From NCBI GenBank assembly GCA_964598205.1, contig CAZRBB010000006.1, positions 1 to 60,773 of the forward strand: a DNA stretch of 60,773 nt, written 5' to 3'. The notes beneath the pieces were generated by a model that worked only from the letters and a program-made list of their open reading frames with translations, did no database searches and had not been told where the DNA came from. How positions within the stretch are numbered: position 1 is the stretch's first letter; each line of letters begins with the position of its first letter. Below are positions 45,308 to 60,773 of the stretch, in pieces. Source of the DNA: an uncultured Candidatus Saccharibacteria bacterium (GTDB taxonomy: Bacteria > Patescibacteriota > Minisyncoccia > CAIUEV01 > JAHKAQ01). The position numbers and the translations under genes were made by a program.

Positions 45308-46123
45308 CTAAGGAGTGCTTTTTTTGTTTAAATCGCCAACAAATTCTTTAATCATTTCTTCCTGAACGCTCATACTATTGGTAATAATAATAAGGTTGTC
45401 TGCTACTGTGTAGTTTAAGGAAACAGCACCGTCTTGACTAAAATTAATAAAGCGACTGTTTTTAAAATGACTGCTAGTGGTGAACTCTTTTTTACCAGAA
45501 ACTTTTACTATGTCGTATTTTTCTCCGATTAAAACGAACTTCTTTAAATCCATCACCATTTCTTTTTCCCATTCTCCAATCAAAGAAGCGTTTTGGGTAG
45601 CCATTTTATTGTTTTTAATCAAAATTGCTTCACTGGGAGCAATATCGTTTGTTCCCCAGTAGATATAAAAAGCTAAGACTTCTATATCTTTAGAAACAGA
45701 ATCTGGAAAATAAACCTTGGCTTTTTGTAAGGCATCCCAAAGCCTAATTGGTTCGTTAGCTGGGGAAAAAAACGAAACTTTTTGTAATTCTTTTTTGACT
45801 CGAGAAAAATGATTCGGCACTTCTGTGGCAAGATCTGTTTTGTCGTTTAAGGTAATTGAAAGAGAAGAAACAGAAGAAGGGGAAGAAGGATCTTCTGTCT
45901 TATTTTGAGAAAAAATGTCTTCTATTTCTCCGCCAGAGCCAGTTTTGGTGCTCCCATTAACTCCGGTTCCATTCTTTGAGGAATTAGGGGAATTGTTACT
46001 CTTTTGGTTCTTATTGGAAATAGAACCTATAACCAAAAGAAGAGCAATTCCCGCTATCCCAAAGGCTAGTCTTTTGATTACCTTTTCCATTCCCTTGCTT
46101 TTGTTTTTGATTTCTTTTTCCAT
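45308..46123 (-). CDS. Membrane-anchored hypothetical protein
   Basis: N-terminal TM helix followed by an S/N/G-rich linker. Confidence 0.7.
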   Translation of the reverse strand: MEKEIKNKSKGMEKVIKRLAFGIAGIALLLVIGSISNKNQKSNNSPNSSKNGTGVNGSTKTGSGGEIEDIFSQNKTEDPSSPSSVSSLSITLNDKTDLATEVPNHFSRVKKELQKVSFFSPANEPIRLWDALQKAKVYFPDSVSKDIEVLAFYIYWGTNDIAPSEAILIKNNKMATQNASLIGEWEKEMVMDLKKFVLIGEKYDIVKVSGKKEFTTSSHFKNSRFINFSQDGAVSLNYTVADNLIIITNSMSVQEEMIKEFVGDLNKKSTP

Positions 46124-47787: not shown

Positions 47788-49455
47788 TTAGTCAAGATAG
47801 TTTTTAACAGTGCACAAGAATTTGTCTTTTAATTTTACCTCCTGATAAGTTAGTGTCGAATTGTCTTCTCGGTTAATAATGGTGGTTTTCTCTTCTCCAA
47901 AAAGATCAATTAATGTTTTTAGGATCAAGGGGTTTGATGTGTTGGTTTTTATGATTCTTATCCCCTCTTGCTTAACTTCTTGAACGATTCTTTTAAAAAG
48001 AACTGTTAATATTTTTTTATTCCAAATTGGTCCATTCCCCCAAGGAGTCTTCAGTTTATTAATATCAAAAATATTCTCATCTTCTATTGCCACAAAATTA
48101 CCGCTTATCGAAATAATATTAGAAAATCGGACAATAAGTTTCTTTTGCTTAACTACTTCTGGAGTAATCTCTTGAACTATCTTTAATTGTTGCTCCGCTG
48201 TTAGAACATCCTCCTTTATTTTATCTGGATAAAGTAAGTGGTAAAAAAGGGGTTTGGGTGGAAGTTCTTTTTTTTGAATTATTCCCTTTATTTCTGTGGC
48301 GGCTCTTTTTCCGCAGTTTCCGTCATTGTAAGAAAATAGATTTTCGCGAATCTTTTTTCTCTCTTTGCGGTAAAAAGAATCTTGATCCAAAAGGGCTTTA
48401 TTAAGAGCCAGTGATAATTCTCCTGGACTATTAATTGTTATTACCTGGCCTTCTTTTTTTATTAACTGCTCAATGCTACCAGAATAAGTAAGCGGTCCTG
48501 ACCAGCCGCGCCGATAAGATTTAACTTTTTTAAAATCAGTATCTAGGAAATCTTTAGACCAAAAATCAGCAACCACAATTGGCTTGTCGGCCAAAATAGT
48601 ATCAAAAATAACGCTGGAATTGTCACTTAGAACAACATCGGCAATCCCTAAGAGAACTAAAAGATCGGTAGAATCATCAAATTTTAGAATTTCTTTTTGG
48701 GAGAATTTGTGCAATCTCTCCTTTTCTTCGTAGACATTGTAGTAGTGGAATTTTATTAAAACATTAAATTTACTGGTCATTTCTCTTAGATTTTCAGCGA
48801 TCAAATCAATAGAAGAGAGATCGCTATGAGTAGGAAGATAGAGCAATGTTTTTTTTAAAGGATCTAGCTGGTTTTTAATTTTTTCTATTAATTCTTGGTC
48901 TAGATTTTTAGAAAACCAGTCGTCGAATTTAGGATTACCAACAACAGCAGAAGAAGTGTATTGAGAGAAAATTGATTGGTCGCGGACTCCATAGGCCAAA
49001 ATTAAATCGAAATTTGCTTTCCAAAATCCAAAAGTGGTGAGCTCTTTGCCACAACCGTAAGGTAGGTGAATCTGTTTTCTATTTTCCCAAACACACGGAA
49101 TCTTTAGGCAACCTCTCCTCCAAACAGAAACTAGAGCTTGATATTTAGAAAAGAATCGCTCTAAAAAACTTAAGTCAAAATAGTCGTTATAATTAAGGAC
49201 TCTAAAATAAACTTTTTCTCTGACCAAGAGAGAAATTAAATTGTCTAATAGATAGGTTGGTTGTTTGACTGGGAAAAAACATCCTAAATCCACAATGAAT
49301 TCCGCTTCTTTAGTTAAATGGCGGTAAATATTTTTGTAAACATAAAATTGGAATGGGTAAACAATCACAAATCCCAAAATAGCTTGGGGGTTGGGATTGT
49401 CTTTGATTTCTTTTTGCTCAAAAGAAACCAAGCTGTTATCTTCTTTGGTAATCAT
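47788..49455 (-). CDS. CDP-glycerol glycerophosphotransferase-family protein (TagF-like)
   Basis: VGNPKFD, LLYLPTH, IKFH, DVVLSDNSSVIFD..KPIV, DGNCGKRAA. Confidence 0.85.
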   Translation of the reverse strand: MITKEDNSLVSFEQKEIKDNPNPQAILGFVIVYPFQFYVYKNIYRHLTKEAEFIVDLGCFFPVKQPTYLLDNLISLLVREKVYFRVLNYNDYFDLSFLERFFSKYQALVSVWRRGCLKIPCVWENRKQIHLPYGCGKELTTFGFWKANFDLILAYGVRDQSIFSQYTSSAVVGNPKFDDWFSKNLDQELIEKIKNQLDPLKKTLLYLPTHSDLSSIDLIAENLREMTSKFNVLIKFHYYNVYEEKERLHKFSQKEILKFDDSTDLLVLLGIADVVLSDNSSVIFDTILADKPIVVADFWSKDFLDTDFKKVKSYRRGWSGPLTYSGSIEQLIKKEGQVITINSPGELSLALNKALLDQDSFYRKERKKIRENLFSYNDGNCGKRAATEIKGIIQKKELPPKPLFYHLLYPDKIKEDVLTAEQQLKIVQEITPEVVKQKKLIVRFSNIISISGNFVAIEDENIFDINKLKTPWGNGPIWNKKILTVLFKRIVQEVKQEGIRIIKTNTSNPLILKTLIDLFGEEKTTIINREDNSTLTYQEVKLKDKFLCTVKNYLD

Positions 49456-49468
49456 ATTTTTGGGAATC

Positions 49469-50148
49469 TTAAGATTTTATTTTTTGCCTAACTTCGGCTA
49501 AATCTTGGGGAAAATCAATTTCTTTGCAAAAAGCTTTCTCAATGTCTACCGGCTTCATTTTAAAACTTTTTTTTAAAAACAAAAGTTCTAAGGCTTGTTC
49601 AAAATAATCTCCATCATTGATTCCTAAAAGTTCTTCTTTGAAAATACCCAGATCGTTCTTTTGAATAAAATAAGCTCCCAAGGACTCCCCTTCTGCTTTC
49701 TTTATTTTTTTAGAAATTCTTGCTAAATAGCCTTCATCACCAAGCAAATATTTCATTTCTTCTCTGCCACATTCCTTTTTATCTACCAAACAGGCATTGC
49801 TTTTTTTTCTAATAATTTTCCCAATAGCCCTTTTTCAAAAAAGACATCTCCGTTTAGCCAAAGAATATCTTCTTCTAATTGATTGACTCCCAAAAGAAGA
49901 CTCTTCCCCGTCTGGGTTCTGGCGTAATTTTCGTTATAAAGAAACTTTAAAAAAGAATATTGATGTGTGAATAATTCTTTTTTATAGCCAGCAATAACAA
50001 TAATCTCCTCTTTTTTAATCCCTGCCTCCACTAATCTTTCTATTTGAAAATCTAAAATAGTTTTTGATTTTTTTAGTGGCACTAAAGCTTTGGGTAGTCC
50101 GGCACCTAAACGACAACCCATGCCTGCAGCTAAAATTATAGCTTTCAT
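49469..50148 (-). pseudogene. LicC-like phosphocholine/NTP cytidylyltransferase split by a frameshift at an A8 run
   Basis: ORF 49783-50148 (MKAIILAAGMG, NGDV) and ORF 49469-49789 (EEMKY, GES, YFE, EIDFPQDL); one extra A at 49801-08 gives a continuous 226-aa protein. Confidence 0.8.
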
Positions 50149-50171: not shown

Positions 50172-51101
50172 TTAAACAGAAGCCGAAGAAAGTAAAGATT
50201 TTATTTCTTTTTTAATTGCATTCACACAATCAGCGCAACTACCATTCTTGATTTGGTTTTTTACCAAAGCATACTTTCTAAATTCAATAAAAGCTGGCAT
50301 TTTTTTTTCGTAGACATCTTGAAAATCTTTTAACTCCCCTAGCTTAATTGGTTCAGCAAAAATACAAGGATGAATTCCAGTAGCGGAAAGACAAAAATTC
50401 TTCCCCTCTAGTCTTGAACAATTCAGGAGATCGGCTTGTTCTTTACCAGGAGGACTGATTACAACCTTCCCTTTATATTTTTCTATTTCTCCCAATAAAG
50501 ATTCGTAGACTGGTGTTAAACTTTTTCCTTGGCGCCTATTCTTGTAATCAACTTCATTTTGAAAATTAAGATTGACTGCTCCTAACGATTCAACGAAGCT
50601 AAAAAATCGGCTAAAGTCACCTTTTTTAGCTAGATTTTCTCCAGACAAAACACAAGTTACGCGCAAATTATGACCGCCTTTGGCAATTAACCTGATTGCT
50701 TCTACTGCTTTATCAAAAGAAGTTCCCTTTCGCATTTTTTCGTGTTCTTCTTTTTTATCGCTGTCTAGGCTCACAGAAAAACTAATTTCTCCTTTAGTGT
50801 TTTCTTCTATAAACTCCAGCCATTCTTTGTTAAAAAGGATTCCGTTAGTTTCAAAAAGAATATTCCATTTTAATTCCTTAATAACCCTGAACAATTCTTT
50901 TAATTGCGAGTACAAAAGAACTTCACCGCCTGTTAACCCCATGCTCCGGTAGCCCAGCTGGTGCGCTTCTTTCATTATTTTTTCTAATTTTGGAAGAGGA
51001 ATTTCTGCCTTTGATTTTTTGCGCAAACAGTAGGCACATTTTAAGTTGCACTTATTAGTTACGATTACGGCAAGGTGGGGATTTCCAAATTTAGGAGGCA
51101 T
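50172..51101 (-). CDS. Radical SAM protein with Twitch/SPASM-like tail
   Basis: CNLKCAYC, TGGE, ETNG, SLDS; C..GIHPC..CADC. Confidence 0.92.
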   Translation of the reverse strand: MPPKFGNPHLAVIVTNKCNLKCAYCLRKKSKAEIPLPKLEKIMKEAHQLGYRSMGLTGGEVLLYSQLKELFRVIKELKWNILFETNGILFNKEWLEFIEENTKGEISFSVSLDSDKKEEHEKMRKGTSFDKAVEAIRLIAKGGHNLRVTCVLSGENLAKKGDFSRFFSFVESLGAVNLNFQNEVDYKNRRQGKSLTPVYESLLGEIEKYKGKVVISPPGKEQADLLNCSRLEGKNFCLSATGIHPCIFAEPIKLGELKDFQDVYEKKMPAFIEFRKYALVKNQIKNGSCADCVNAIKKEIKSLLSSASV

Positions 51102-51117
51102 AAAAATATGTTTATTT

Positions 51118-54084
51118 TTATCTTTCGTTAAACGCTTCGGAAGGAATAGTATCTAAGAAATTAAAATAATCCCTCATTGGTCTTTCTGGAGAAAAAGCCC
51201 AACGACCTTTAATTTGCAAAAGCTTAATATCATTTAAATTAAACTTTTTAAAACTCTTTCCATTGTTCATGCTTTTAAGCAAAAAATCAACTTGCTCTTT
51301 TATACTAGAAAAACACGATAGATCTCCAGGAACAAAAGCCTGAAAATCATCTGTTGTTCCGACTAAGCCAAGTTTTAAATCGTGACCCATATTTTTTAGT
51401 TCTTCCACATTTTGAGCTTTTATCTCTTTTTCTTCTTCTATTAAATAAACAAAAAAAGATAAGCTCCCCAGCTCGGAAAGCCAAATAGGCTTATGTAGGG
51501 AAAAAGAGGAGCAATCATCGGTGATTCTTGGGGTTTCTTTTAAGGCTCTGTTAACGCAATTAAGAACACCATTTAGATAATTCTTTTTATCATTAGAAAA
51601 ATTGCTAAAAGCAAATCCCCTTTTTCTATTAAACCAGCACCCTCTTCTTAATTCTCTTTTATTGATCAAAACAGCGACTCTTCCCTTTTTAACTAAATAT
51701 TTTTTTAAAAACGGTAAGTAACCAAAGCTCCCCCGTTCATCAAAAAGTAAAAAAGGAGTTCTCTTAAAATCAGAAAAAAGAAGTGCGGTAGCCGTATCTT
51801 TGGCGAGTTTGGCAATTTCTATCTCGCTCCTTTTTAAATGTTGAAGATCTTCTTTTTCTATCTCTTCCTTTTCTTCTAGGTAATCTTCTTTTATTTCTTC
51901 TAATCCGGAATAACTCCGGTGATAAACTGGGGAACCATATTTCTTGTACTGATCTTCTTTTTCAAAAGACACTTCTTCTTTCTTTATTTGATCCAGAGAA
52001 GCTATGCAATTATAAGGAATGCCGGCGACATTGCCAAAGTTAAGCTTGGACCCACTGCCAATAACTACTAGGGCTTTTACCAAAATGATTCCATTTTTTT
52101 CAGTAAACTCTTTGGCCCTAGCAATGGTTCTTCCCTTGTTGGTTATATCATCTATAAAAATCGCTTTTTGACCCCGAAAATTACGACTGCCCTCTATTTG
52201 CAAACAAAGATCCCCCATTTTACCTTCTTTTCTAATATAGCAAACTTCTAATTTTTCTCTTGGGAAAAAAACATCGTTTAAGGCTAGAATCGCCCCCATT
52301 ATTGGGAAGCTAGAGGTTTCAAAGCCTATTAAAAGCCTAGGCTGGGACTTGATTTTTCTAATATAATCTAAAAATATTTTGGCAATCAAAGAAATCGGCC
52401 GATCGTACCCAAATATTTCCCGAACATCCATCATGAATGAATTTTCGTTTCCCGGCACTTTCTGGCCATTCTCTACTAAATAATATCTTTCATAAGTTTT
52501 AATCTTATCCGAAAATTCATCTTTTTTAACAAAATAATTAAGTTTGACTGCATACTGTCTTAAATAGTAGAGGACTTCTTTTTCTAGGGCTTCGGTGTTC
52601 CAAGGTGGAGGTAGTAATTCCTTGTCTTTATTGCTTAAGCTAAAATAGCCATTCTCTTTGTGTTCAATGTTTTTTAAGAAAAAATTGGCATTATTCTCCG
52701 CACTTCGATAATCAAAAAAACTTCTTTTCTTTTCCTTGTCTAAAAGGAAAGGAAATAAAAATAAATCTTTTCTGTAAGAAAAAATATTTACTCCTACTCC
52801 CATTTGGAAAAATGGGTTTCCTTTTTCCTCAAAGGAATAGAAAATGGGCTTATTATTTTTAATTTCTGCTGGACAACAATGAACTCCTGAACCAAGAACA
52901 ATATCTACCCCCGACTTGGTAAGAAAATCGGCAAAATCCTGATGTTTTTTTTCAATATTGGCCTCTCCTGCTCCCCAGCGACAAAAAACAATCAATGTTT
53001 TTGCCTCTTTTTTAAACTGCTCAATCTTTTCTTTGAGGTGTGGTTTTTTTTCTTCTTCTTGATATTCGGAATAATTCAAATCCCAAAAACCGATCCTACT
53101 CTGTGCTATTTCTTTGACAATTATCCCCTTACAAGCCAAGGAACTAACAGAAGGATCGTTTAGCTCTTTTATTTTTATTTTCCTATTAAAATAATCAAAG
53201 AATCGACCATTTTCTAGAACCCAGAAAAAACGATGATCGTAAAGAACAATTAGATCCACTCCAATAAAAGTTCTAAAAAAGGCGGGAGAAAAGTCTTGAG
53301 AGAAAAAATCCTGATTATTTTGATTGAAGTAACAAATAACAGAGACTGCTCTTGGGGAGGAATATTTTTCTCCTTTCTTAAAAATAGAATTCAAATAACT
53401 GACCGAGCTTTCCGTGGTTAATCCTTCCCCCAAAAAAGCCGAGTTGCTTTTTCTTATTTTAACCTTAAAAAAGTTTCCTTTTTCTAAATATTTTAAGAGA
53501 AAATATAGAGATTTATTACTATCCCCTTCTATTTTTTGAATTTTATCAAAATCAAAACTCCTAATAGCCGAAGCGCTTATTTGATCGTGAAAATAAGCAA
53601 TTTTTCTTTGCGAATAATGAGAAAAATCAATGCTGGCAACTACTAAAACCTTTTTCTTTTGCGACTCGGCAAAAATAATCTCTGCTAATTGGTCTAGTTT
53701 TTCCCTAGAGCAATCTCTTTTAAAAACCAATGGGACAATTTTTGTATTTGGAAAGTAAATTTTAATTCTACCCGTAAGTGCAAAAATGGAATGTTCTCTG
53801 TAAAAAGTTGCTTCTTCTCTTTGGCAAATTTCCCTTGCTACCAATTTTTTTGCCAGCTCTTGATCTACTTCTAGTATTCCATAATCTGTTTTAAAGGAAT
53901 CAAAAGCCGTTTGGATTTCACCATTACCCAGGCCAAAATGGTTTGGCCCCGCAATTACTACAAGGTCGTATTCTTTTTCTGCCAAGGAAACTTCCTTAAA
54001 AAAGCCATCAATCAATGACTTAGCTATTGGAATATGGTGACAAACAATCCCTCCACCAACTTGTGGCTCTAGCTTATTGTTCAT
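51118..54084 (-). CDS. Fusion: MEMO (AmmeMemoRadiSam B) - CapA-like - PRTase - AMMECR1 (AmmeMemoRadiSam A); likely start 54084
   Basis: GIVCHH, IAGPNH, REHS, ASIDFSHY; WGAGE..GVDIVLGSGVH; FIDDITNKGRT; ELRRGCW..ETPRI..FVPG. Confidence 0.8.
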   Translation of the reverse strand: MNNKLEPQVGGGIVCHHIPIAKSLIDGFFKEVSLAEKEYDLVVIAGPNHFGLGNGEIQTAFDSFKTDYGILEVDQELAKKLVAREICQREEATFYREHSIFALTGRIKIYFPNTKIVPLVFKRDCSREKLDQLAEIIFAESQKKKVLVVASIDFSHYSQRKIAYFHDQISASAIRSFDFDKIQKIEGDSNKSLYFLLKYLEKGNFFKVKIRKSNSAFLGEGLTTESSVSYLNSIFKKGEKYSSPRAVSVICYFNQNNQDFFSQDFSPAFFRTFIGVDLIVLYDHRFFWVLENGRFFDYFNRKIKIKELNDPSVSSLACKGIIVKEIAQSRIGFWDLNYSEYQEEEKKPHLKEKIEQFKKEAKTLIVFCRWGAGEANIEKKHQDFADFLTKSGVDIVLGSGVHCCPAEIKNNKPIFYSFEEKGNPFFQMGVGVNIFSYRKDLFLFPFLLDKEKKRSFFDYRSAENNANFFLKNIEHKENGYFSLSNKDKELLPPPWNTEALEKEVLYYLRQYAVKLNYFVKKDEFSDKIKTYERYYLVENGQKVPGNENSFMMDVREIFGYDRPISLIAKIFLDYIRKIKSQPRLLIGFETSSFPIMGAILALNDVFFPREKLEVCYIRKEGKMGDLCLQIEGSRNFRGQKAIFIDDITNKGRTIARAKEFTEKNGIILVKALVVIGSGSKLNFGNVAGIPYNCIASLDQIKKEEVSFEKEDQYKKYGSPVYHRSYSGLEEIKEDYLEEKEEIEKEDLQHLKRSEIEIAKLAKDTATALLFSDFKRTPFLLFDERGSFGYLPFLKKYLVKKGRVAVLINKRELRRGCWFNRKRGFAFSNFSNDKKNYLNGVLNCVNRALKETPRITDDCSSFSLHKPIWLSELGSLSFFVYLIEEEKEIKAQNVEELKNMGHDLKLGLVGTTDDFQAFVPGDLSCFSSIKEQVDFLLKSMNNGKSFKKFNLNDIKLLQIKGRWAFSPERPMRDYFNFLDTIPSEAFNER

Positions 54085-55039
54085 CTGTAAAATCAAATGA
54101 TTTTTTAGAAAAAAAGTTAGAAAAGGCCAAAGAGCAAGACCAACAATCTCCATTTACATATTCGTCTCCCGTTAAAGCTGCCCTCCTTAAGCTTCCAAGG
54201 CCGGAGACAAAAGAAAAATCAGTGGCAAAGGCCTCTTTGAATCCACAGACCACACATTCTTCCTGGTAAAGGCAGGGATGGAATCCACGAGAAGAAAAAG
54301 TTAGGGCTTTATTGGTTTCTTCTATTTTGGAACAAAAAATCTTATCTCTTATTCCGTAGGTGGTGGGAATATTTATTAAATTTTTATATTTATTACTCAG
54401 AACACTTGCTCTAGAAGAAAAATCAATCATTTCGTTAACCGTTAGGGAATGTTCGCCCCCCTTGTTTCTCCCCAGAGTAACTATTGGGGAAAAAATACAA
54501 TTCGCTGCTCCTTTTTTGATTAAAAAAAGTGCAAAATTTTCCAACTCAACAGTTGGGGGATTATTTAATCGATTAATAACCGTATTTACCGAAAAAGAAT
54601 TACCCCTTTCCTTTAAAATGGAGAGCATTTTAATTGCCTTTTTAAAACTACCAGTACCCCTAAAAAAATCATGAACCTTTTCCTTGTAGCTATCCAAGCT
54701 GACCAAGAAAGAGATCCGAGAAGCAGGGATTAGCCCGAAGAGAGGATGTTTAATGAGTTTTTCAAAGTTCATACCGTTCGTTTCTATAAAAATGGAGAAA
54801 TTTTTTAGAGCAAGAAATTCTAAAATTTCAAAGAATTGTGAGTGGAGAGATGGTTCCCCGCCGGTTAAGGAGCAAGATTTTTTTAATCCAGAAACATCCA
54901 CCTTCCTTGCAATCCTTTTAATCATTTCAAAAGGAACTTCGTCGCTCTTGGAGCTATCGGCCTTGCGTAAACAATAAGTGCAATGCAAGTTGCATTTCCG
55001 AGTTAAGATGATATTAAGAGAAGAAACGGAAAAATCCAT
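54074..55039 (-). CDS. Radical SAM protein with Twitch/SPASM-like tail (paralogue of 50172)
   Basis: CNLHCTYC, TGGEP, ETNG, SLDS..D.FRGTGSF; C..GFHPC..CWSC. Confidence 0.92.
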   Translation of the reverse strand: MDFSVSSLNIILTRKCNLHCTYCLRKADSSKSDEVPFEMIKRIARKVDVSGLKKSCSLTGGEPSLHSQFFEILEFLALKNFSIFIETNGMNFEKLIKHPLFGLIPASRISFLVSLDSYKEKVHDFFRGTGSFKKAIKMLSILKERGNSFSVNTVINRLNNPPTVELENFALFLIKKGAANCIFSPIVTLGRNKGGEHSLTVNEMIDFSSRASVLSNKYKNLINIPTTYGIRDKIFCSKIEETNKALTFSSRGFHPCLYQEECVVCGFKEAFATDFSFVSGLGSLRRAALTGDEYVNGDCWSCSLAFSNFFSKKSFDFTDEQ

Positions 55040-55092: not shown

Positions 55093-55983
55093 ATGCAAGA
55101 AACTAATGACCAAAAAAGAATACTGGAACTAGATTTAACAAGTGTTGGCCATTTTAACGACCTTTTTTTTGGAGTTAAGGAAAAACATTTTGTCTCCTCG
55201 GCTAAACTCTTTGATTTTATTACCCAAAAAAAAGGTTCCTTGAATATTACCACAATTCTTCTTCGAGGATCTGGAGAACCAATGTTCCATCCCGATTTTA
55301 AAAAAATCGTTCGTTTTATTCAAAAAGAAAATATCGGCTTAAATATCTTTACCTTTCCTTATTTACTTAGTGATTATCAAAAAATATTAGGGGAATCATT
55401 TTCTTTGGTTGATTTCTCCTTTTATGTTTACCCCAACAGTGACTATGCCAAAGACTGGACTTTTCACTCTTCTTTTTTAAATGGAGAAAATCAATCACTC
55501 TTTAACCAAATCAGAAAACCATCTTTGTTTTATCTTTTAAACGAAAAGACAAGAGACTGCTTAGATGACTTTATTTGGGAAACAAGCAAAAGAGGTCTTA
55601 CTTTTAATATTTTACGACCAATGGAGAAAGAAAGCATTGTTTCTTCTGGCTTATTATCTAAAGCCAAGAGTCGATTTAAAAAGAATAATATTCATTTGAA
55701 TATTCAATGGGAAGATGGAAAAAATCCTAACTGCCTCTGTTCTTACTTTAGAGATCAAAGAATTTTTATGAATTGTGATAGTCAATTTTCTGTTTGCCAC
55801 TTTCTGCCTTTTTCAGACAAATACACTTTTTCGCCACTAGAAATTAAAGAAAATAATTCAGCGGCCAGTAATTTTTACTCTTTAATAAAAGAAAAAAGGG
55901 AAGAAGAGCGGAAAAAATATTTTATGAATAAAAAATATTTTTGTAGCCCTTGCGATATCTGTTTAAAGGTTTGTAGCAAGTAA
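55093..55983 (-). CDS. Degenerate radical-SAM-fold protein (no CxxxCxxC; auxiliary Cys retained)
   Basis: LELDLTSVGHF where CxxxCxxC is expected; GSGEPMFHPDF; CLC..VC..CSPCDIC tail. Confidence 0.7.
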
Positions 55984-55987
55984 AAAA

Positions 55988-58900
55988 CTAAACAAAAATC
56001 ATCTTTTTCCAAGATTTGATTTTCTTTGTTTTTTCCAAAAGCATTAGTGCCAATAAACCATAGTGACTGTATAGCCCTGTGGCTACTTGGTCTTTTGCGT
56101 TGCCAGCAAATCCTCCATTTTTAAAACAGCCTTTTAAGAATTCTTGGTGTCCTGGGTGCCTCTTTAGGTTTTCTCCTAAAATTTCTAGAGCTTGAATTGC
56201 AAAGTAAGTTGATTGAATTCCTGCTTCCTCCTTTGGAAAATGAGAAAAGCCACCGGTATCATTATTTTCACACAGATAAATAAACTTTTTTAATTCAGCT
56301 AGCTTGCTTGTAAACAAAGAGCAATCGGCTTGAGGATGCATCTTTTCTATGATTTTACAAGAAACAATCTGACGATAAACATCATAAAGAACCGTCCGGC
56401 TGTTTTTATAAGCCGAATCAAAAACCGAAAGAATTCCGCTAACTAACCTTTCTGGTATTTTTATATCTAAAAGATAGTGCAATAGAATAAGATAATAAAT
56501 TTCTACCGTCTCTCCTTCCTTTATTTTTTGCTCCAATCTTCCTTCTAAACTAGGAATAATGGCTTCTTTGGGTAAACCATACCCCAAAAGAGACAATGTT
56601 TTTATAAACCAATAATTCACTTTTTCTACAGAATGAAATCTAAAAGAATCCGTACAAAAGGCTTTTTCTTTTAAATATTTTTCTATTAAGAAAGCTAAAT
56701 AGTCCTTTTCTTTCTGACAATCCTTGTTTGTTTGTGAAGATCGAGAAAGAAGATTCCAGTAGCTAGCCAAGAAAACTAAATTAGTAAAGCTATGCCCCGA
56801 AAAACCACCGGTATCGCATTTTAAGGCAAGCACTTCTTTGATTATTTCTTCTTTATTAATATCTCTCCCTAAGAATTTATTAAACTTTATGTATTTTAGA
56901 GTGCCTGGAAAATCGTTTTTAACATTTGGTTTTGGCCATTGATGATTAATGCTTAAGCTGTGAAAATCATTGAATCTCAGTAGCGAAAGAATTTCTAATG
57001 TGGCGAGTGTTTCTTCGAAACTAAGGGTGTTTTCTTCTTTTTCTATTTTTTTGGAAAAGAATAAGAGTGACTCTGTTTTTTCTTCTTCGCTTAACGAATT
57101 AAGCTCTAAAAGAATTCCCATAATCTTTTTTTTGTTTTCTAGATCTAAACTTTCATTATAAAGAAACCTCTTTAAATAAGTTACCGTTTCTTTTTCAATG
57201 TCTTTAAAGCCGATATTAATTAAAGAAGAGACCCACAAAATTGTTGCCTCAAGAGACGATCCGCCACCAAATAATCCGTAACTGCCGCCGGAATTCAAAA
57301 AACTTTTAGCATAGTTAATAATCCCCAACTGATTTTTAGGCTTTATTCCTAGCAGATGGCAAGAAACCGTTACGCTGTGGTTGGTGGCACACCAAGGAAC
57401 ATGCCCTGGCCATTCACCAAAGCCGACTTCCCCCATTTGCAAGGAAAGAAGCCATTTCTCTGTGTCGGGAAAATCGAATTTATAATCCAACTCTTTTAAT
57501 ATTTCTAAACATTGACGAGTAGTTTCGTGGCAAGGAATCTTTCTTTTTGTTTCAAAATTTTTGTTAACGGAAAAATCTTCAATTTCTATTTTTTCTAAGA
57601 AATTTTCAATTGTCTCGGGAAGGGTGAGATTACTATCTCCTTCCTCTGCTAAATCATAACTAATTAGCGCATCCTCCTTGGCTTCTTCTTGGGGATTTGA
57701 CCTATTATAAGGGCAACCCTCTCTTTTAGCATTAACATAGCTGTCTAAAATATCCCATTTAGTAGGCGATTTTCTTTTTAATTCTTCTGGCCAAAGAAGA
57801 TAAAAAACAAAAGACTCGGCCAAGTCCTCCGCACCACTAAAAGCATAAAAACTAACGGCTATTTTTTTCTTTTCTTCAATAGTTTTTTCTTTTCCGAGAA
57901 TTTTATCCCCATCAACAAAATATTCCCAATCCTCTAAAAGCTCTTTTCCTTTTGGAATAGATCCTAAGAAAAGATGCATCATTTCGTGAGCAATGGTGGC
58001 TTTTAAATTATCCAGATCCCAAATGCGGTATCCTTCTTCCCGAAAAACGAAAGGATAGAGAGTAATTCTTTTTTCTTTAATGCTGGCCATTCCTCTAGAT
58101 AAAGGAGTCAGTCTGATTCTTTCTTCCCTATCGTAATCGTTTTCTCCAGGATAGATTGCCTTAGCACAATGATTGGGGCAATCTTTTTCTTCTATTATTA
58201 TTTCTTCTATTAGGTCTTTAAAGAGAGGGTTTAAGTTAAGAATAAGACTCAAAATATTAGCTATCTTTTCTAAATAAACATCGGTAAGTAAAACTGATTT
58301 TGATTTTACTTGAATCTTCTTTTCTTGTTTTACTAGATTAATAATTTTAAAATCTTTTAGATTTTCTGTTCTACCTTCCTCTTCTTTTTTGGAAAAATCA
58401 CCTAAAAGCAGGCAACCGGAACAGTTAAAAATTCCGCTTTTTTTAATTTTTTCTTGAATTGGCTTTAGCTTGGTGTCTACGGTTCTAGCAAAGCTAAAAA
58501 AATCAAAATCCTTATCTTCTTTATTAATAACCAAGTCTGCTTCTTCTTTGCCAAAATAAGGGCAAAAATTTAATTTGTAATTATAGTCTAAAAATAAATC
58601 AGCTCCTTCCAAGTAACTGCATAAATGCTTTCTTCCCTCTCCTCCTAAGGAAAAAAAGGTTTCTTTTTTAAACCCTTCTTTAAAAAGAAGTTTTTCCCAT
58701 CTTACGATTTGCTCCTTGGAAGGAAGATAGTTTTTAAGTCCTTCCGGAAGAGATCCTAAAAAAGAGAGATCTTTAAAAAACCAAAGATCGGGCCCAACTA
58801 ATTCCAAAAAATCATTCATTCTTACTACTGTTTCCAAAAAATTATGCTTTCCTAAATAAATCCTTACTCCTATTTTTTTCTTCCTTTTCTTAGCTTCCAT

Positions 58901-59281
58901 TAAAAAGTCAATTTTCCTTTTTAAACTGCCCTTTGATTCAAAAATATTATCCGTTCTTTTTTGAATGCCATATAGATTAACGCTAAGAAAATTTAGAGAA
59001 GCATTGTTCCAAAAAGCAAACTCCTGATCGTTTTTTAAAAAAGAAATCTCCATTTCTACTGTAAATTCGTTTTCTTCTAAAAAAGAAAGCAGTTCCTTTA
59101 TTTTGGAATAGCCCAAGGGATTATTTAGGAGCCTGATTCTTTTTAAACCATTGGCGCGAGCGCTTTTTAGGAAGCGCAAAAGCCATTCAAAATCAATTTC
59201 TATTGATTTTGGTTGATTAAAAAAATAATAATCCCTTTGATTGTTTAGGTCTAAAAGTAAAATATAGGACATTAATCCCAA
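55988..59281 (-). CDS. 1097-aa fusion: degenerate rSAM/Twitch - zincin metallopeptidase - prenyltransferase/squalene-cyclase-type repeats
   Basis: HLC..FC..CSGC; HEMMH (57974-88) plus EDLAESF; repeated xGGF/Y units (NSGGSYG, DTGGFSG, DTGGFSHFP..STYFAIQAL, NGGFAG). Confidence 0.75.
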   Translation of the reverse strand: MGLMSYILLLDLNNQRDYYFFNQPKSIEIDFEWLLRFLKSARANGLKRIRLLNNPLGYSKIKELLSFLEENEFTVEMEISFLKNDQEFAFWNNASLNFLSVNLYGIQKRTDNIFESKGSLKRKIDFLMEAKKRKKKIGVRIYLGKHNFLETVVRMNDFLELVGPDLWFFKDLSFLGSLPEGLKNYLPSKEQIVRWEKLLFKEGFKKETFFSLGGEGRKHLCSYLEGADLFLDYNYKLNFCPYFGKEEADLVINKEDKDFDFFSFARTVDTKLKPIQEKIKKSGIFNCSGCLLLGDFSKKEEEGRTENLKDFKIINLVKQEKKIQVKSKSVLLTDVYLEKIANILSLILNLNPLFKDLIEEIIIEEKDCPNHCAKAIYPGENDYDREERIRLTPLSRGMASIKEKRITLYPFVFREEGYRIWDLDNLKATIAHEMMHLFLGSIPKGKELLEDWEYFVDGDKILGKEKTIEEKKKIAVSFYAFSGAEDLAESFVFYLLWPEELKRKSPTKWDILDSYVNAKREGCPYNRSNPQEEAKEDALISYDLAEEGDSNLTLPETIENFLEKIEIEDFSVNKNFETKRKIPCHETTRQCLEILKELDYKFDFPDTEKWLLSLQMGEVGFGEWPGHVPWCATNHSVTVSCHLLGIKPKNQLGIINYAKSFLNSGGSYGLFGGGSSLEATILWVSSLINIGFKDIEKETVTYLKRFLYNESLDLENKKKIMGILLELNSLSEEEKTESLLFFSKKIEKEENTLSFEETLATLEILSLLRFNDFHSLSINHQWPKPNVKNDFPGTLKYIKFNKFLGRDINKEEIIKEVLALKCDTGGFSGHSFTNLVFLASYWNLLSRSSQTNKDCQKEKDYLAFLIEKYLKEKAFCTDSFRFHSVEKVNYWFIKTLSLLGYGLPKEAIIPSLEGRLEQKIKEGETVEIYYLILLHYLLDIKIPERLVSGILSVFDSAYKNSRTVLYDVYRQIVSCKIIEKMHPQADCSLFTSKLAELKKFIYLCENNDTGGFSHFPKEEAGIQSTYFAIQALEILGENLKRHPGHQEFLKGCFKNGGFAGNAKDQVATGLYSHYGLLALMLLEKTKKIKSWKKMIFV

Positions 59282-59754
59282 GTCAAAAGTTTATAAGAAG
59301 ACTGTCTTTCACCGAATCGATACATTCTGCCAATAATCTTGGCAATTATCTTGTCTTTTTTAATTGGACCAAAAACCCTAGAATCTTGACTCCCTCCCCG
59401 ATTATCTCCTAAAACTAAAAATTCATTTGTTCCTAATTCCCAATAAAAATTACCGAGCGGCTTATCCTTAATGTAGGATTCTTCTAGAATAGTTTTTTGA
59501 CCATCTTGTTCTATAGTAATAAAACCATCTTTATATTCTACTTTTTCCTTGGGTAGTCCAATGACTCGCTTTAACATCTTACCTCCTGTTTTTGTTGGAT
59601 TCCAAAAAAGGATTATTTCTTTTCTCTTTATTTCTTCTTCTTTCTTAATATCTCTAAAAGCAAAAAAATCACCATTATTGTAAAAAGGTTTCATACTTTC
59701 TCCGTTTACCATGTCTACAAAATACTCTTTCATTAATTCTTTAAATAGCGACAC
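59272..59754 (-). CDS. Signal peptidase I (S26)
   Basis: GESMKP (catalytic Ser), LKRVIGLP (Lys), LGDNRGGSQDSRVFG. Confidence 0.92.
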   Translation of the reverse strand: MSLFKELMKEYFVDMVNGESMKPFYNNGDFFAFRDIKKEEEIKRKEIILFWNPTKTGGKMLKRVIGLPKEKVEYKDGFITIEQDGQKTILEESYIKDKPLGNFYWELGTNEFLVLGDNRGGSQDSRVFGPIKKDKIIAKIIGRMYRFGERQSSYKLLTWD

Positions 59755-60619
59755 ACCCTCCCTGACACTCTTTGCTTATAAAAAAATCACATTCTAAGCA
59801 TCCATTTTTCTTGGCCACTTCTAATTTTTTATTTTGTACCTCTTCTTTAAAAATTAAAAGACCTTGATTCATTTTTTTCCCGATATTATTAATATTCTTG
59901 GTTATATGAAGCGCTGAACAGGGCTGGATAGTTTCCCCATCTGGATGAAAAAGAATGTTTACTCCTGGATTACAAGTTCCATAGAGGCCACAATTTCTTT
60001 TTAAGAAAGACCTTTCAAAAACAGAAAAAACACAAAGGGCAACGGGATTATCAAGAACAACACTATCCTTATAAAAAAGGATTTCGTTGGCAAAGTCAAA
60101 AAGTTTTTTACCGATTTGTCTTTCTATGGCATAGCCTTTTACGGGAGCAAAAACCACCGAAGCATTGTGTCTTTTGGCTAAGCGACCCACTTGAGAGAAC
60201 ATTGATCTTTTGTCTTCTGTTTCCACATTGTACCGAAAACAAAGATTGGTCTTATTTTGAGAATAAAATTCAATAGTTTTTAGGACTCTTTCTTTTTTAT
60301 CGTTATAAAAAATATTCTTAACATTAATCACTACTTTGCTAGGAAAAACACGCAAAGGCTCAATCCCGTTGGTTAAGACTGTGGTATTTATTCCTTTTTC
60401 CCGACAATAAATAATCGCCTGATCAATTCCTTTCCAAACAGAAGGCTCTCCCCCTAAGATGTTGACATCTGTTCCACCGAGTTGCTGGTGTTCGTCTACA
60501 ATCTTTCTAAATAAAGCCCCTTCCATTTCTTTAGGGAAGTCTTTTTTGTAAGGGTTTGTGTAACAGTATGGACAATAAGAATTGCAATTATAAGAGGGAG
60601 CAATAAGAATTCTGGGCAT
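59741..60619 (-). CDS. Radical SAM/SPASM protein (likely start MPRILI at 60619)
   Basis: CNSYCPYC, GGEP, LTNG; SPASM: GTC..PDG..QPC..CLEC..ECQGGC. Confidence 0.93.
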   Translation of the reverse strand: MPRILIAPSYNCNSYCPYCYTNPYKKDFPKEMEGALFRKIVDEHQQLGGTDVNILGGEPSVWKGIDQAIIYCREKGINTTVLTNGIEPLRVFPSKVVINVKNIFYNDKKERVLKTIEFYSQNKTNLCFRYNVETEDKRSMFSQVGRLAKRHNASVVFAPVKGYAIERQIGKKLFDFANEILFYKDSVVLDNPVALCVFSVFERSFLKRNCGLYGTCNPGVNILFHPDGETIQPCSALHITKNINNIGKKMNQGLLIFKEEVQNKKLEVAKKNGCLECDFFISKECQGGCVAI

Positions 60620-60633
60620 ATCTTCTTGTAAGC

Positions 60634-60773
60634 TTAAATACCGGAAGATCCGCAAGCTTGACTGCCTCCACAGGCTTCACAAGCTTGATCGGAAGAGCCA
60701 GCTGAACCGGAAGAGTCAGCTGCGCCTGAAGATCCGCAAGCTTGACTGCCTCCGCAAGCTTCACAAGCTTGAT
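60634..60773 (-). CDS. 3' end of a Cys/Ser/Gly-rich repeat ORF, candidate RiPP precursor, 5'-truncated: QACEACGGSQACGSSGAADSSGSAGSSDQACEACGGSQACGSSGI*
   Basis: Open from the window edge to TAA at 60634-36; all four differences between repeat copies are synonymous third positions in this frame; 14 nt upstream of the rSAM start. Confidence 0.85.
   Translation of the reverse strand, partial: QACEACGGSQACGSSGAADSSGSAGSSDQACEACGGSQACGSSGI
60644..60773. repeat. 46-bp direct repeat with 84-bp period (60644-89; 60728-73)
   Basis: GAAGATCCGCAAGCTTGACTGCCTCC(A/G)CA(G/A)GCTTCACAAGCTTGAT; two mismatches. Confidence 0.95.

Follow-up and report, generated by a model that had tools for sequence, protein, structure and literature searches.

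A fusion of a dead radical-SAM domain, a gluzincin-type peptidase module and a prenyltransferase-type toroid as a candidate accessory subunit of peptide maturation in a Candidatus Saccharibacteria bacterium

What could a single protein do that joins a dead radical S-adenosylmethionine (rSAM) domain, a zinc peptidase module and an alpha/alpha toroid of the prenyltransferase type in one chain? The question is raised by a fusion open reading frame (ORF) in a 60,773-nucleotide stretch of DNA from an uncultured Candidatus Saccharibacteria bacterium (contig CAZRBB010000006.1 of assembly GCA_964598205.1; hereafter the window), which stems from a bacterial chromosome low in GC (about 32-42%) and carrying ftsA, ftsZ, nrdD and ybeY. 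The ORF is located in a cluster of rSAM genes, and two genes upstream of it lies a precursor-like gene that encodes a Cys-rich protein with tandem repeats. The original prediction, made from the DNA alone, was that this one protein binds the precursor, excises its cores and modifies their cysteines by prenylation or thioether formation. In our analysis all three domain calls (dead rSAM, gluzincin, and toroid of the prenyltransferase/squalene-hopene cyclase (SHC) type) hold, and it is a reasonable supposition that the protein binds the precursor and cuts it. Modification of cysteines by the toroid is not supported: an alignment of 28 members of the toroid family has no conserved zinc ligands, no DxDD motif and no conserved basic pocket.

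The reading that we favor, with confidence that stands at about even, is that the fusion protein is a cytoplasmic accessory subunit, both substrate-holding scaffold and processing protease, in a multi-enzyme rSAM maturation of the Cys-rich repeat precursor. The dead rSAM domain and the toroid would bind the repeat precursor and hand it to the live rSAM enzymes of the cluster, after which the fused metallopeptidase would cut it, either to remove a leader or to cleave between repeat units; a soluble S26 peptidase encoded next to the fusion ORF would possibly assist. The toroid would serve here as a binding module and not as a Cys-alkylating enzyme. We propose the dead rSAM domain and the toroid as precursor binders because the three live rSAM proteins, in which CX3CX2C lies near residue 15-25, are only ~300 amino acids (aa) long and no RRE or PqqD domain was found in them.

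Every part of the fusion protein can be placed in a known superfamily, and as a whole the system follows the logic of an rSAM peptide-maturation cluster. The parts are arranged as follows, with residues counted from the TTG codon.

55988-59281, minus strand: three-domain fusion ORF, 1097 aa from TTG; likelier 1094 aa from the ATG at 59272.
58637-59281, minus strand: radical-SAM core fold without CX3CX2C, aa 1-215 (from Pfam, a BLAST chain and alignment).
58397-58636, minus strand: twitch-like or partial-SPASM segment, aa 216-295, with C221, C240, C287 and C290 (from alignment).
58097-58396, minus strand: K/E-rich linker and N-terminal part of the peptidase module (poor model), aa 296-395.
57722-58096, minus strand: predicted gluzincin core of the LF/PPEP-1/MtfA type, aa 396-520, with Tyr479 at 57845-57847.
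55991-57610, minus strand: predicted alpha/alpha toroid of prenyltransferase-beta-type repeats, aa 558-1097, ~26 helices.

The ORF is uninterrupted through the 1097 codons counted from TTG. The ATG at 59272 overlaps the stop codon of the upstream gene (TAATG) and is the likelier start; the 1094-aa product (P0001) is called identically on the four contigs that were read, with three places shown (JGI and Logan samples). The motifs from which the prediction was made are all present in this ORF: HEMMH at aa 432-436 (57974-57988), EDLAESF at aa 485-491 (57809-57829) with VFYLLWPEELKRKSP after it, units of the GGF/GGY type at aa 620, 665, 825, 1010 and 1056, and STYFAIQAL at aa 1024. The three-domain fusion forms one single 50%-identity cluster among ~15 billion proteins, and a word-index homologue search with the full-length protein returned only itself; relatives of its parts came from an exhaustive HMMER search. 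The protein is below the cut-off of every curated NCBIfam model. We considered that it could be a membrane protein and ruled this out, as its maximum 19-residue hydropathy is 1.54 with no convincing transmembrane segment.

The CX3CX2C motif is absent from all 1097 aa of the fusion protein. Where live rSAM proteins read LTxKCNLxCxYC the fusion protein has LLDLNNQRDYYFF, which places LNNQRDYYFF against the CNLxCxYC of the live paralogues, and the GGE SAM motif is also gone ('LLNNPLGY'). Because all three cluster cysteines and GGE are lost, the domain is predicted to be unable to cleave SAM. Its origin can be traced in two ways. Radical_SAM (PF04055) matches the isolated N-terminal domain at E 2.6e-4, below the gathering score, and a BLAST chain reaches live rSAM proteins through a 605-aa protein of a related locus, L004: the N-terminal domain of the fusion protein matches the N-terminal half of this protein at E 4e-9, and that half matches live rSAM proteins at E 2.6e-11 and 3.3e-9. 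When only the four dead rSAM domains went into a profile, its PDB matches were weak (the rSAM structure 2yx0 at 0.0065) and mixed with spurious kinases. From these comparisons domain 1 is judged homologous to the partial TIM-barrel core of rSAM enzymes and dead for SAM cleavage, as the original prediction had it.

In order to compare dead and live domains we aligned four of each from this locus and L004. The motif cysteines are missing in all four dead domains, and C221, C240, C287 and C290 are invariant in all eight domains; this invariance marks the four cysteines as a putative auxiliary [4Fe-4S] site, at which domain 1 may still hold an Fe-S cluster. The domain resembles pseudo-SAM/SPASM proteins and SPASM/twitch rSAM peptide maturases in its rSAM fold, in its C-terminal Cys-rich auxiliary-cluster segment and in being encoded among live rSAM paralogues beside a repeat precursor. 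It differs from them in having four cysteines rather than seven (the full seven-Cys SPASM motif was not found in the fusion protein) and in the loss of both CX3CX2C and GGE.

The middle domain retains all the residues expected of a gluzincin of the HExxH+E type: H432, E433, H436, Y479 and E485 are intact. From the composition of the fusion protein only 0.03 HExxH motifs are expected, and the motif is invariant in a 12-member homologous family; it is therefore not a chance match. The exhaustive HMMER search found P0046 as the sole relative of the module, and a word-index search seeded with the module and P0046 added ten further relatives. All of these relatives are hypothetical proteins that stand alone, with lengths of 175-266 aa; one has a precomputed Peptidase_M90 match and the JGI name MtfA. 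The 12-sequence alignment has as invariants AHExxH, a Trp, VSxYA, EDFAES and P..L. Compared with PDB, the profile of this family matches PPEP-1/Zmp1 at E 0.014-0.017 and the catalytic fragment of anthrax lethal factor (LF) at E 0.026, and the alignment places Y479 on Tyr178 of PPEP-1 and E485, the first Glu of EDLAES, on Glu185. H432, E433 and H436 align in turn with His142, Glu143 and His146 of PPEP-1, in which Tyr178 is catalytic and Glu185 is the third zinc ligand.

Pfam matches within the peptidase family are to Peptidase_Mx (11 of 12 members), ATLF (7 of 12) and M90 (6 of 12), with the relatives matching these three models at 1e-4 to 1e-5; the fusion protein itself is below every Pfam peptidase threshold, with SprT-like as its best match at 0.15. 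An AlphaFold2 (AF2) model of aa 301-560 has a pLDDT of 57, with only a helical core at ~aa 421-520 reaching 70-90, and its top Foldseek matches are nearly all LF/PPEP-1, at E values (>= 0.5) that are not significant. On the strength of the family alignment we accept domain 2 as a gluzincin of the LF/PPEP-1/MtfA group, the M34/M90 assignment itself not being formal. The module shares with LF, PPEP-1/Zmp1 (M34) and MtfA (M90) the HExxH motif and, ~40-50 residues further on, a Tyr and a Glu, the latter in an E-x-F-A-E-S-F/Y helix. Unlike them, it is no secreted toxin or protease but one segment of a cytoplasmic protein with several domains, which lies under the Pfam peptidase thresholds; its PDB E value is only ~0.015, and its N-terminal sheet part is unmodelled.

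The free-standing HExxH relatives end a conserved four-gene block that encodes, in order, a protein of 91 aa, one of ~280 aa, one of ~1000 aa and the HExxH protein (loci L012-L014; P0056, P0060). The preceding genes are unannotated, and the block looks like an uncharacterised system of its own. Since the block is unrelated to the cluster in the window, the peptidase module was apparently acquired from another context. Behind the block, L014 carries an rSAM-like gene and genes whose products are an AAA+ ATPase, a protein with FHA and a Ser/Thr kinase.

The C-terminal domain is a member of a family of stand-alone proteins ~540 aa in length, with P0002 as its closest relative (32% identity, E 8e-65). 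Our alignment of this family holds the fusion protein and 27 relatives, and it is the basis of the statements on conservation in the toroid (n=28). Prenyltrans (PF00432) matches the fusion protein with 42-46.6 bits against a cut-off of 26.5 and is matched by all 28 members, most of which also match SQHop_cyclase_N and SQHop_cyclase_C; a word-index search with the toroid alignment returned only three irrelevant PF00432 proteins. The AF2 model made from the 28-member alignment has a pLDDT of 83, a pTM of 0.87 and about 26 helices. When this model was compared with PDB by Foldseek, SHC (1sqc) came first at E 6e-5, and the matches over the whole domain were to class II cyclases of the beta-gamma type, for example drimenyl-PP synthase (7xr7/7xq4) with TM-scores of 0.48-0.54. 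Prenyltransferase beta subunits cover half of the toroid (TMt ~0.5). LanC, which the original prediction had also named for this comparison, was found neither as a LANC_like Pfam match in the 28 members nor among the top 50 Foldseek matches.

Domain 3 is thus modelled as an alpha/alpha toroid of the prenyltransferase/SHC type, probably with two barrels rather than one. It shares with the beta subunits of farnesyltransferase (FTase), geranylgeranyltransferase I (GGTase-I) and Rab geranylgeranyltransferase (RabGGTase) the Gly-rich 'x-D-GGF-G ... T-Y-x-A-L' hairpin repeats, but with ~540 aa and ~26 helices it is about twice one barrel. From SHC and the class II cyclases with a beta-gamma didomain, which provide its best whole-domain Foldseek matches and the SQHop_cyclase Pfam matches of its family, it differs in that the family has no DxDD, and TM-scores to SHC-like class II cyclases are only 0.43-0.54. 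No curated family covers the toroid family, and no literature was found on toroid-rSAM pairs. Two ~900-aa proteins, P0014 and P0019, have many GGF repeats together with an apparent N-terminal signal-like segment and a C-terminal hydrophobic anchor. From these features they look like cell-surface proteins, which suggests that this repeat type is not confined to cytoplasmic enzymes.

Does the toroid modify cysteines? As a zinc-dependent Cys modifier, that is, an S-prenylase or a LanC-type thioether cyclase, it would let one protein bind, excise and alkylate the cores. Two observations speak in its favor: the repeats are homologous to those of prenyltransferase beta subunits, the family profile matching FTase beta at E 2e-27 in addition to the PF00432 match, and the precursor has three Cys in each repeat. 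The FTase beta match is, however, at repeat level only, because one and the same profile segment aligns to several repeats. The catalytic residues are also absent. No column of conserved His was found among the 28 members, and neither a D/C/H nor a C/C/H zinc site is conserved across them; the fusion protein has no DxC motif, so that the DxC..C..H zinc site that the original prediction suggested looking for is missing. The sole conserved Cys of the toroid, C1004, is the structural Cys of the 'C-E/Q-N-x-x-GGF' repeat, which FTase repeats share. The family has one conserved K/R column, which in the fusion protein is occupied by Leu, a point against a diphosphate pocket; nor does the alignment contain DDxxD or any conserved basic residues suited to handling diphosphate. 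We found no PPTA-repeat protein that could be an alpha subunit among the 17 neighboring ORFs scanned with Pfam, and no polyprenyl synthase among the neighboring ORFs scanned. Compared with the prenyltransferase beta subunits, the toroid lacks the Asp/Cys/His ligands and the basic pocket, no alpha partner was found for it among these ORFs, and it is fused to a dead rSAM domain and a peptidase. Finally, relatives of the toroid accompany precursors with one or zero cysteines in the core region (L005). Taken with the missing LanC matches, this makes a Cys-modifying toroid very improbable.

Four specific enzyme or domain classes were considered for the toroid and rejected. A LanC cyclase was rejected on the lack of Pfam and Foldseek matches and of a conserved Cys pair or His; a class II terpene cyclase, as DxDD (searched as DxD[DE]) occurs in none of the 28 members; an FTase-type zinc enzyme, as its ligands and basic pocket are absent; and a thioester domain of the alpha2-macroglobulin/complement type, as CGEQ occurs at none of the 11 Cys of the domain.

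The genes around the fusion ORF, and the comparison with a second locus, help to decide which parts belong to the core of the system. The neighboring genes are the following.

60634-60771, minus strand: precursor-like gene, of which only the 3' end lies in the window; it ends ...QACEACGGSQACGSSG AADSSGSAGSSD QACEACGGSQACGSSGI before its stop codon.
59741-60619, minus strand: live rSAM protein (CNSYCPYC) with a Cys-rich C-terminus and a probable ATG at 60619; orthologue of the truncated first gene of L004.
59272-59754, minus strand: soluble S26 serine peptidase, signal-peptidase-I-like and SodX-like, with intact Ser/Lys boxes and no transmembrane segment.
55093-55983, plus strand: second dead rSAM/twitch protein, 296 aa; orthologue of the C-terminal half of the 605-aa protein of L004 (33%, E 2e-41).
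54074-55039, minus strand: live rSAM protein, 321 aa.
51118-54153, minus strand: 1011-aa fusion of Memo (AmmeMemoRadiSam B), PGA_cap/CapA, phosphoribosyltransferase (PRTase) and AMMECR1-like parts.
50172-51101, minus strand: live rSAM protein, 309 aa; 44% identical to an rSAM protein of L004.
45308-46123, minus strand: conserved protein of 271 aa that matches no family; the 282-aa product of the end gene of L004 (L004:9353-10201) is 33% identical to it (E 1e-37).

The second dead rSAM gene is convergent with the fusion ORF, and the two stop codons are 4 nt apart.

L004 is the contig of P0002 and carries the same system as the cluster in the window. It begins with the truncated orthologue of the first rSAM gene, a gene for the 605-aa fusion of dead rSAM domains 1 and 2, and a free-standing toroid gene; two live rSAM genes follow, whose products are 44% and 37% identical to those of the window; and it ends with a gene for a PRTase/AMMECR1 protein (at 41% identity, its Pfam AMMECR1 match exceeding the cut-off), a Memo/PGA_cap gene and the orthologue of the 271-aa ORF. 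In L004 the orthologues of both dead domains are fused, so that in both loci the system has two dead rSAM domains next to three live ones. Neither an HExxH module nor an S26 gene was found in L004, and the peptidase module of the fusion protein sits exactly at an L004 gene boundary. The core therefore consists of the dead rSAM domains, the toroid, the live rSAM proteins and Memo/AMMECR1, and by this comparison of gene content both peptidases are additions specific to the lineage of the window. The 271-aa protein, which is conserved between the two loci, may be a further component of the system. Searches of genome contigs with the toroid pair and the PRTase/AMMECR1 pair, and of metagenome contigs with the precursor DNA pattern and the PRTase/AMMECR1 pair, gave no match.

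The presumed substrate is encoded at the very edge of the window. In L001 (positions 1-431) its array holds at least 3.1 copies of a 111-bp unit, which are 99% identical and each encode 37 aa reading '...GAAGASGAAGAAGSAGAAGSTDQACEACGGSQACGSS', and a shorter terminal unit ends the array. The repeats span at least 142 aa, with three Cys per unit (QACEACGGSQACGSSG), set apart by Gly/Ala/Ser linkers. The Cys-rich frame has a codon log-odds of +0.33 per codon, which is typical of genes in the window; the precursor frame called by JGI was rejected at -0.085. The S26 protein has all its catalytic boxes intact (GESMKP, KRVIGLP and GDNRGGSQDSR), and with a maximum hydropathy of 0.31 it has no transmembrane anchor. 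It resembles SodX, the cytoplasmic maturation protease of NiSOD (TIGR02754, E 3.5e-12). Type I signal peptidases prefer small residues at -1 and -3, a preference that would suit the Gly/Ala/Ser linkers of the precursor, and the S26 protein may for this reason help in its cleavage.

Additionally, we examined the genomic neighborhoods of the other toroid relatives. In seven of eight informative foreign loci (L004, L005, L008, L009, L011, L015 and the contig of P0022) the relative adjoins rSAM genes; the exception is a membrane-anchored relative beside DUF362 genes. The rSAM proteins in question are of peptide-modifying kinds, among them HxsB, YydG-like, SPASM and B12-rSAM. In L011 the HxsB match is 424.8 bits against a cut-off of 370; further genes of this locus are for HxsD and an HxsD-like protein, for a prepilin-type peptidase and for an HxsA-like repeat protein whose tail is Cys-rich. 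The HxsA3-like protein of L005, encoded beside the toroid relative, contains a single Cys. The HxsA-like proteins at L011:204-761 (minus strand) and L005:470-898 (plus strand) have a common N-terminal 'KKK(I/V)xxFLxxE(D/E)GQISKK', after which come a hydrophobic segment, triplets of the H-x-S type and low-complexity tracts of Thr/Gly/Pro.

HXS (HxsA-D) acts against phages; in it an exported repeat protein undergoes maturation and processing by rSAM enzymes, processing of its N-terminus included, and as published it has no toroid component (PMC13128918). HXS is connected with the present system in that distant relatives of the toroid lie in HxsB/HxsD clusters next to genes for HxsA-like repeat proteins, and in that a repeat protein matured by rSAM enzymes also undergoes proteolysis (PMC13128918; predicted in our case). 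This raises an alternative that overlaps in part with our preferred explanation: the substrate may be an exported repeat protein, and no small peptide, matured in the manner of HxsA, the defence effector of HXS, with the peptidase module and the S26 peptidase processing its N-terminus and the toroid/dead-rSAM part acting as a chaperone, so that the low-complexity substrate stays competent for export or modification. The N-terminal hydrophobic segment of HxsA-like proteins, the combination of rSAM-dependent maturation with N-terminal processing and export in HXS (PMC13128918), a signal-peptidase-family enzyme in the cluster and a long substrate are all consistent with it. However, the rSAM proteins of the window match HxsC with 52.9-54.5 bits against a cut-off of 267.9, and no HxsB, HxsC or HxsD past cut-off and no HxS repeats were found in the window; the S26 protein has no membrane anchor; the N-terminus of the precursor, where such processing would take place, lies beyond the contigs; and PADLOC reported nothing specific in the cluster, only generic viperin-like rSAM matches. 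We regard maturation in the HxsA manner as unlikely.

The 1011-aa fusion protein links the cluster to AmmeMemoRadiSam (TIGR04335-04337). Its Memo part matches TIGR04336 with 87 bits against a cut-off of 26, and its AMMECR1-like part was recognised only through its 492-aa orthologue in L004 (41% identity), which itself scores 28.7 bits against a cut-off of 25. The Memo/PGA_cap/PRTase/AMMECR1 parts form one gene here and two separate genes in L004. TIGR04337 is not among the matches listed for the three live rSAM proteins, which for two of them are the best 25 of 85-89. The cluster shares with AmmeMemoRadiSam a Memo domain, an AMMECR1-like domain and several rSAM proteins, but here one chain joins the first two to CapA-like and PRTase parts, the rSAM proteins are of the SPASM/twitch type, and the cluster adds a precursor gene, two dead rSAM domains, a toroid and two peptidases. 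Nothing functional was found in the literature on AmmeMemoRadiSam. Further along, an NTP-transferase gene (49469-50148, minus strand) appears to be split into ORFs of 121 aa and 106 aa, and the calls on L001 and L002 likewise give two pieces; a gene for a TagF-like CDP-glycerol glycerophosphotransferase (47788-49455, minus strand) follows it. Both are absent from the orthologous cluster in L004, and their membership of the system is therefore uncertain. An Rfam scan of the window found only two tRNAs, away from the cluster.

These neighbors bear on whether the toroid may be catalytic, or bind a ligand such as a polyprenyl or lipid chain, in a new way, coupling peptide maturation to a lipid or envelope step. 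The enzymes that match it best over the whole domain, SHC and drimenyl-PP synthase, handle isoprenoids; E623 ('GFGE') and W630 are nearly invariant in the toroid family; and the cluster has Memo and AMMECR1 domains, contexts of which are said to have been linked to modification of nucleotide bases and isoprenoids in work by Burroughs et al. in 2019 (JBC). The TagF-like and nucleotidyltransferase genes just downstream would fit as well. Against this, these two genes are missing from L004, and the constant neighbors of the toroid family are rSAM enzymes that modify peptides. In the alignment itself DxDD, DDxxD and conserved basic residues for diphosphate are all absent. Apart from one Glu (E623), the columns that are invariant or nearly so hold Gly, Phe, Thr, Pro, Ala, Trp and Gln, and nearly all conserved positions are structural Gly/Phe/Thr/Ala of the repeats. 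A new catalytic or ligand-binding role of the toroid is, on balance, rather unlikely.

Several points weigh against the scaffold-and-protease explanation that we prefer. The scaffold role is deduced from missing catalytic motifs and from gene neighborhood, and E623 and other conserved polar positions of the toroid could form a catalytic site of a new kind. The model of the middle domain is poor (pLDDT 57) and its PDB matches are marginally significant; moreover, as a lineage-specific add-on that is absent from L004, the peptidase module need not have the precursor as its substrate. Every contig breaks inside the precursor array, its N-terminus falls outside the contigs, and a leader/core architecture is assumed. 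The exact system, finally, is known from only two loci in the data.

What would this arrangement mean for the families involved? We see no evidence here for a new Cys-prenylating enzyme of RiPPs (peptides that are made on the ribosome and modified after translation), and the interest of the locus comes mainly from the partnership between the toroid and rSAM enzymes and from the link of Memo/AMMECR1 to an encoded peptide substrate. As a tentative proposal, which we would put forward as a possibility only, the toroid proteins are unrecognised obligate partners of rSAM maturases, either as substrate holders like RRE or with a new activity, and Memo/AMMECR1 is tied to an encoded Cys-rich substrate. 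If our favored reading is right, a dead rSAM paralogue and a toroid would replace the usual RRE/PqqD in substrate recognition during rSAM maturation, with the processing protease built into the recognition protein's own chain. The toroid family, on which no curated family or literature was found, recurs beside diverse rSAM maturases, including the HxsB of an anti-phage system, and this makes its role a general question rather than a curiosity of one locus. For the Memo and AMMECR1 domains, whose human homologues are linked to disease, the cluster also gives genetic access of a rare kind; if the proposal is true, these families would gain their first testable substrate.

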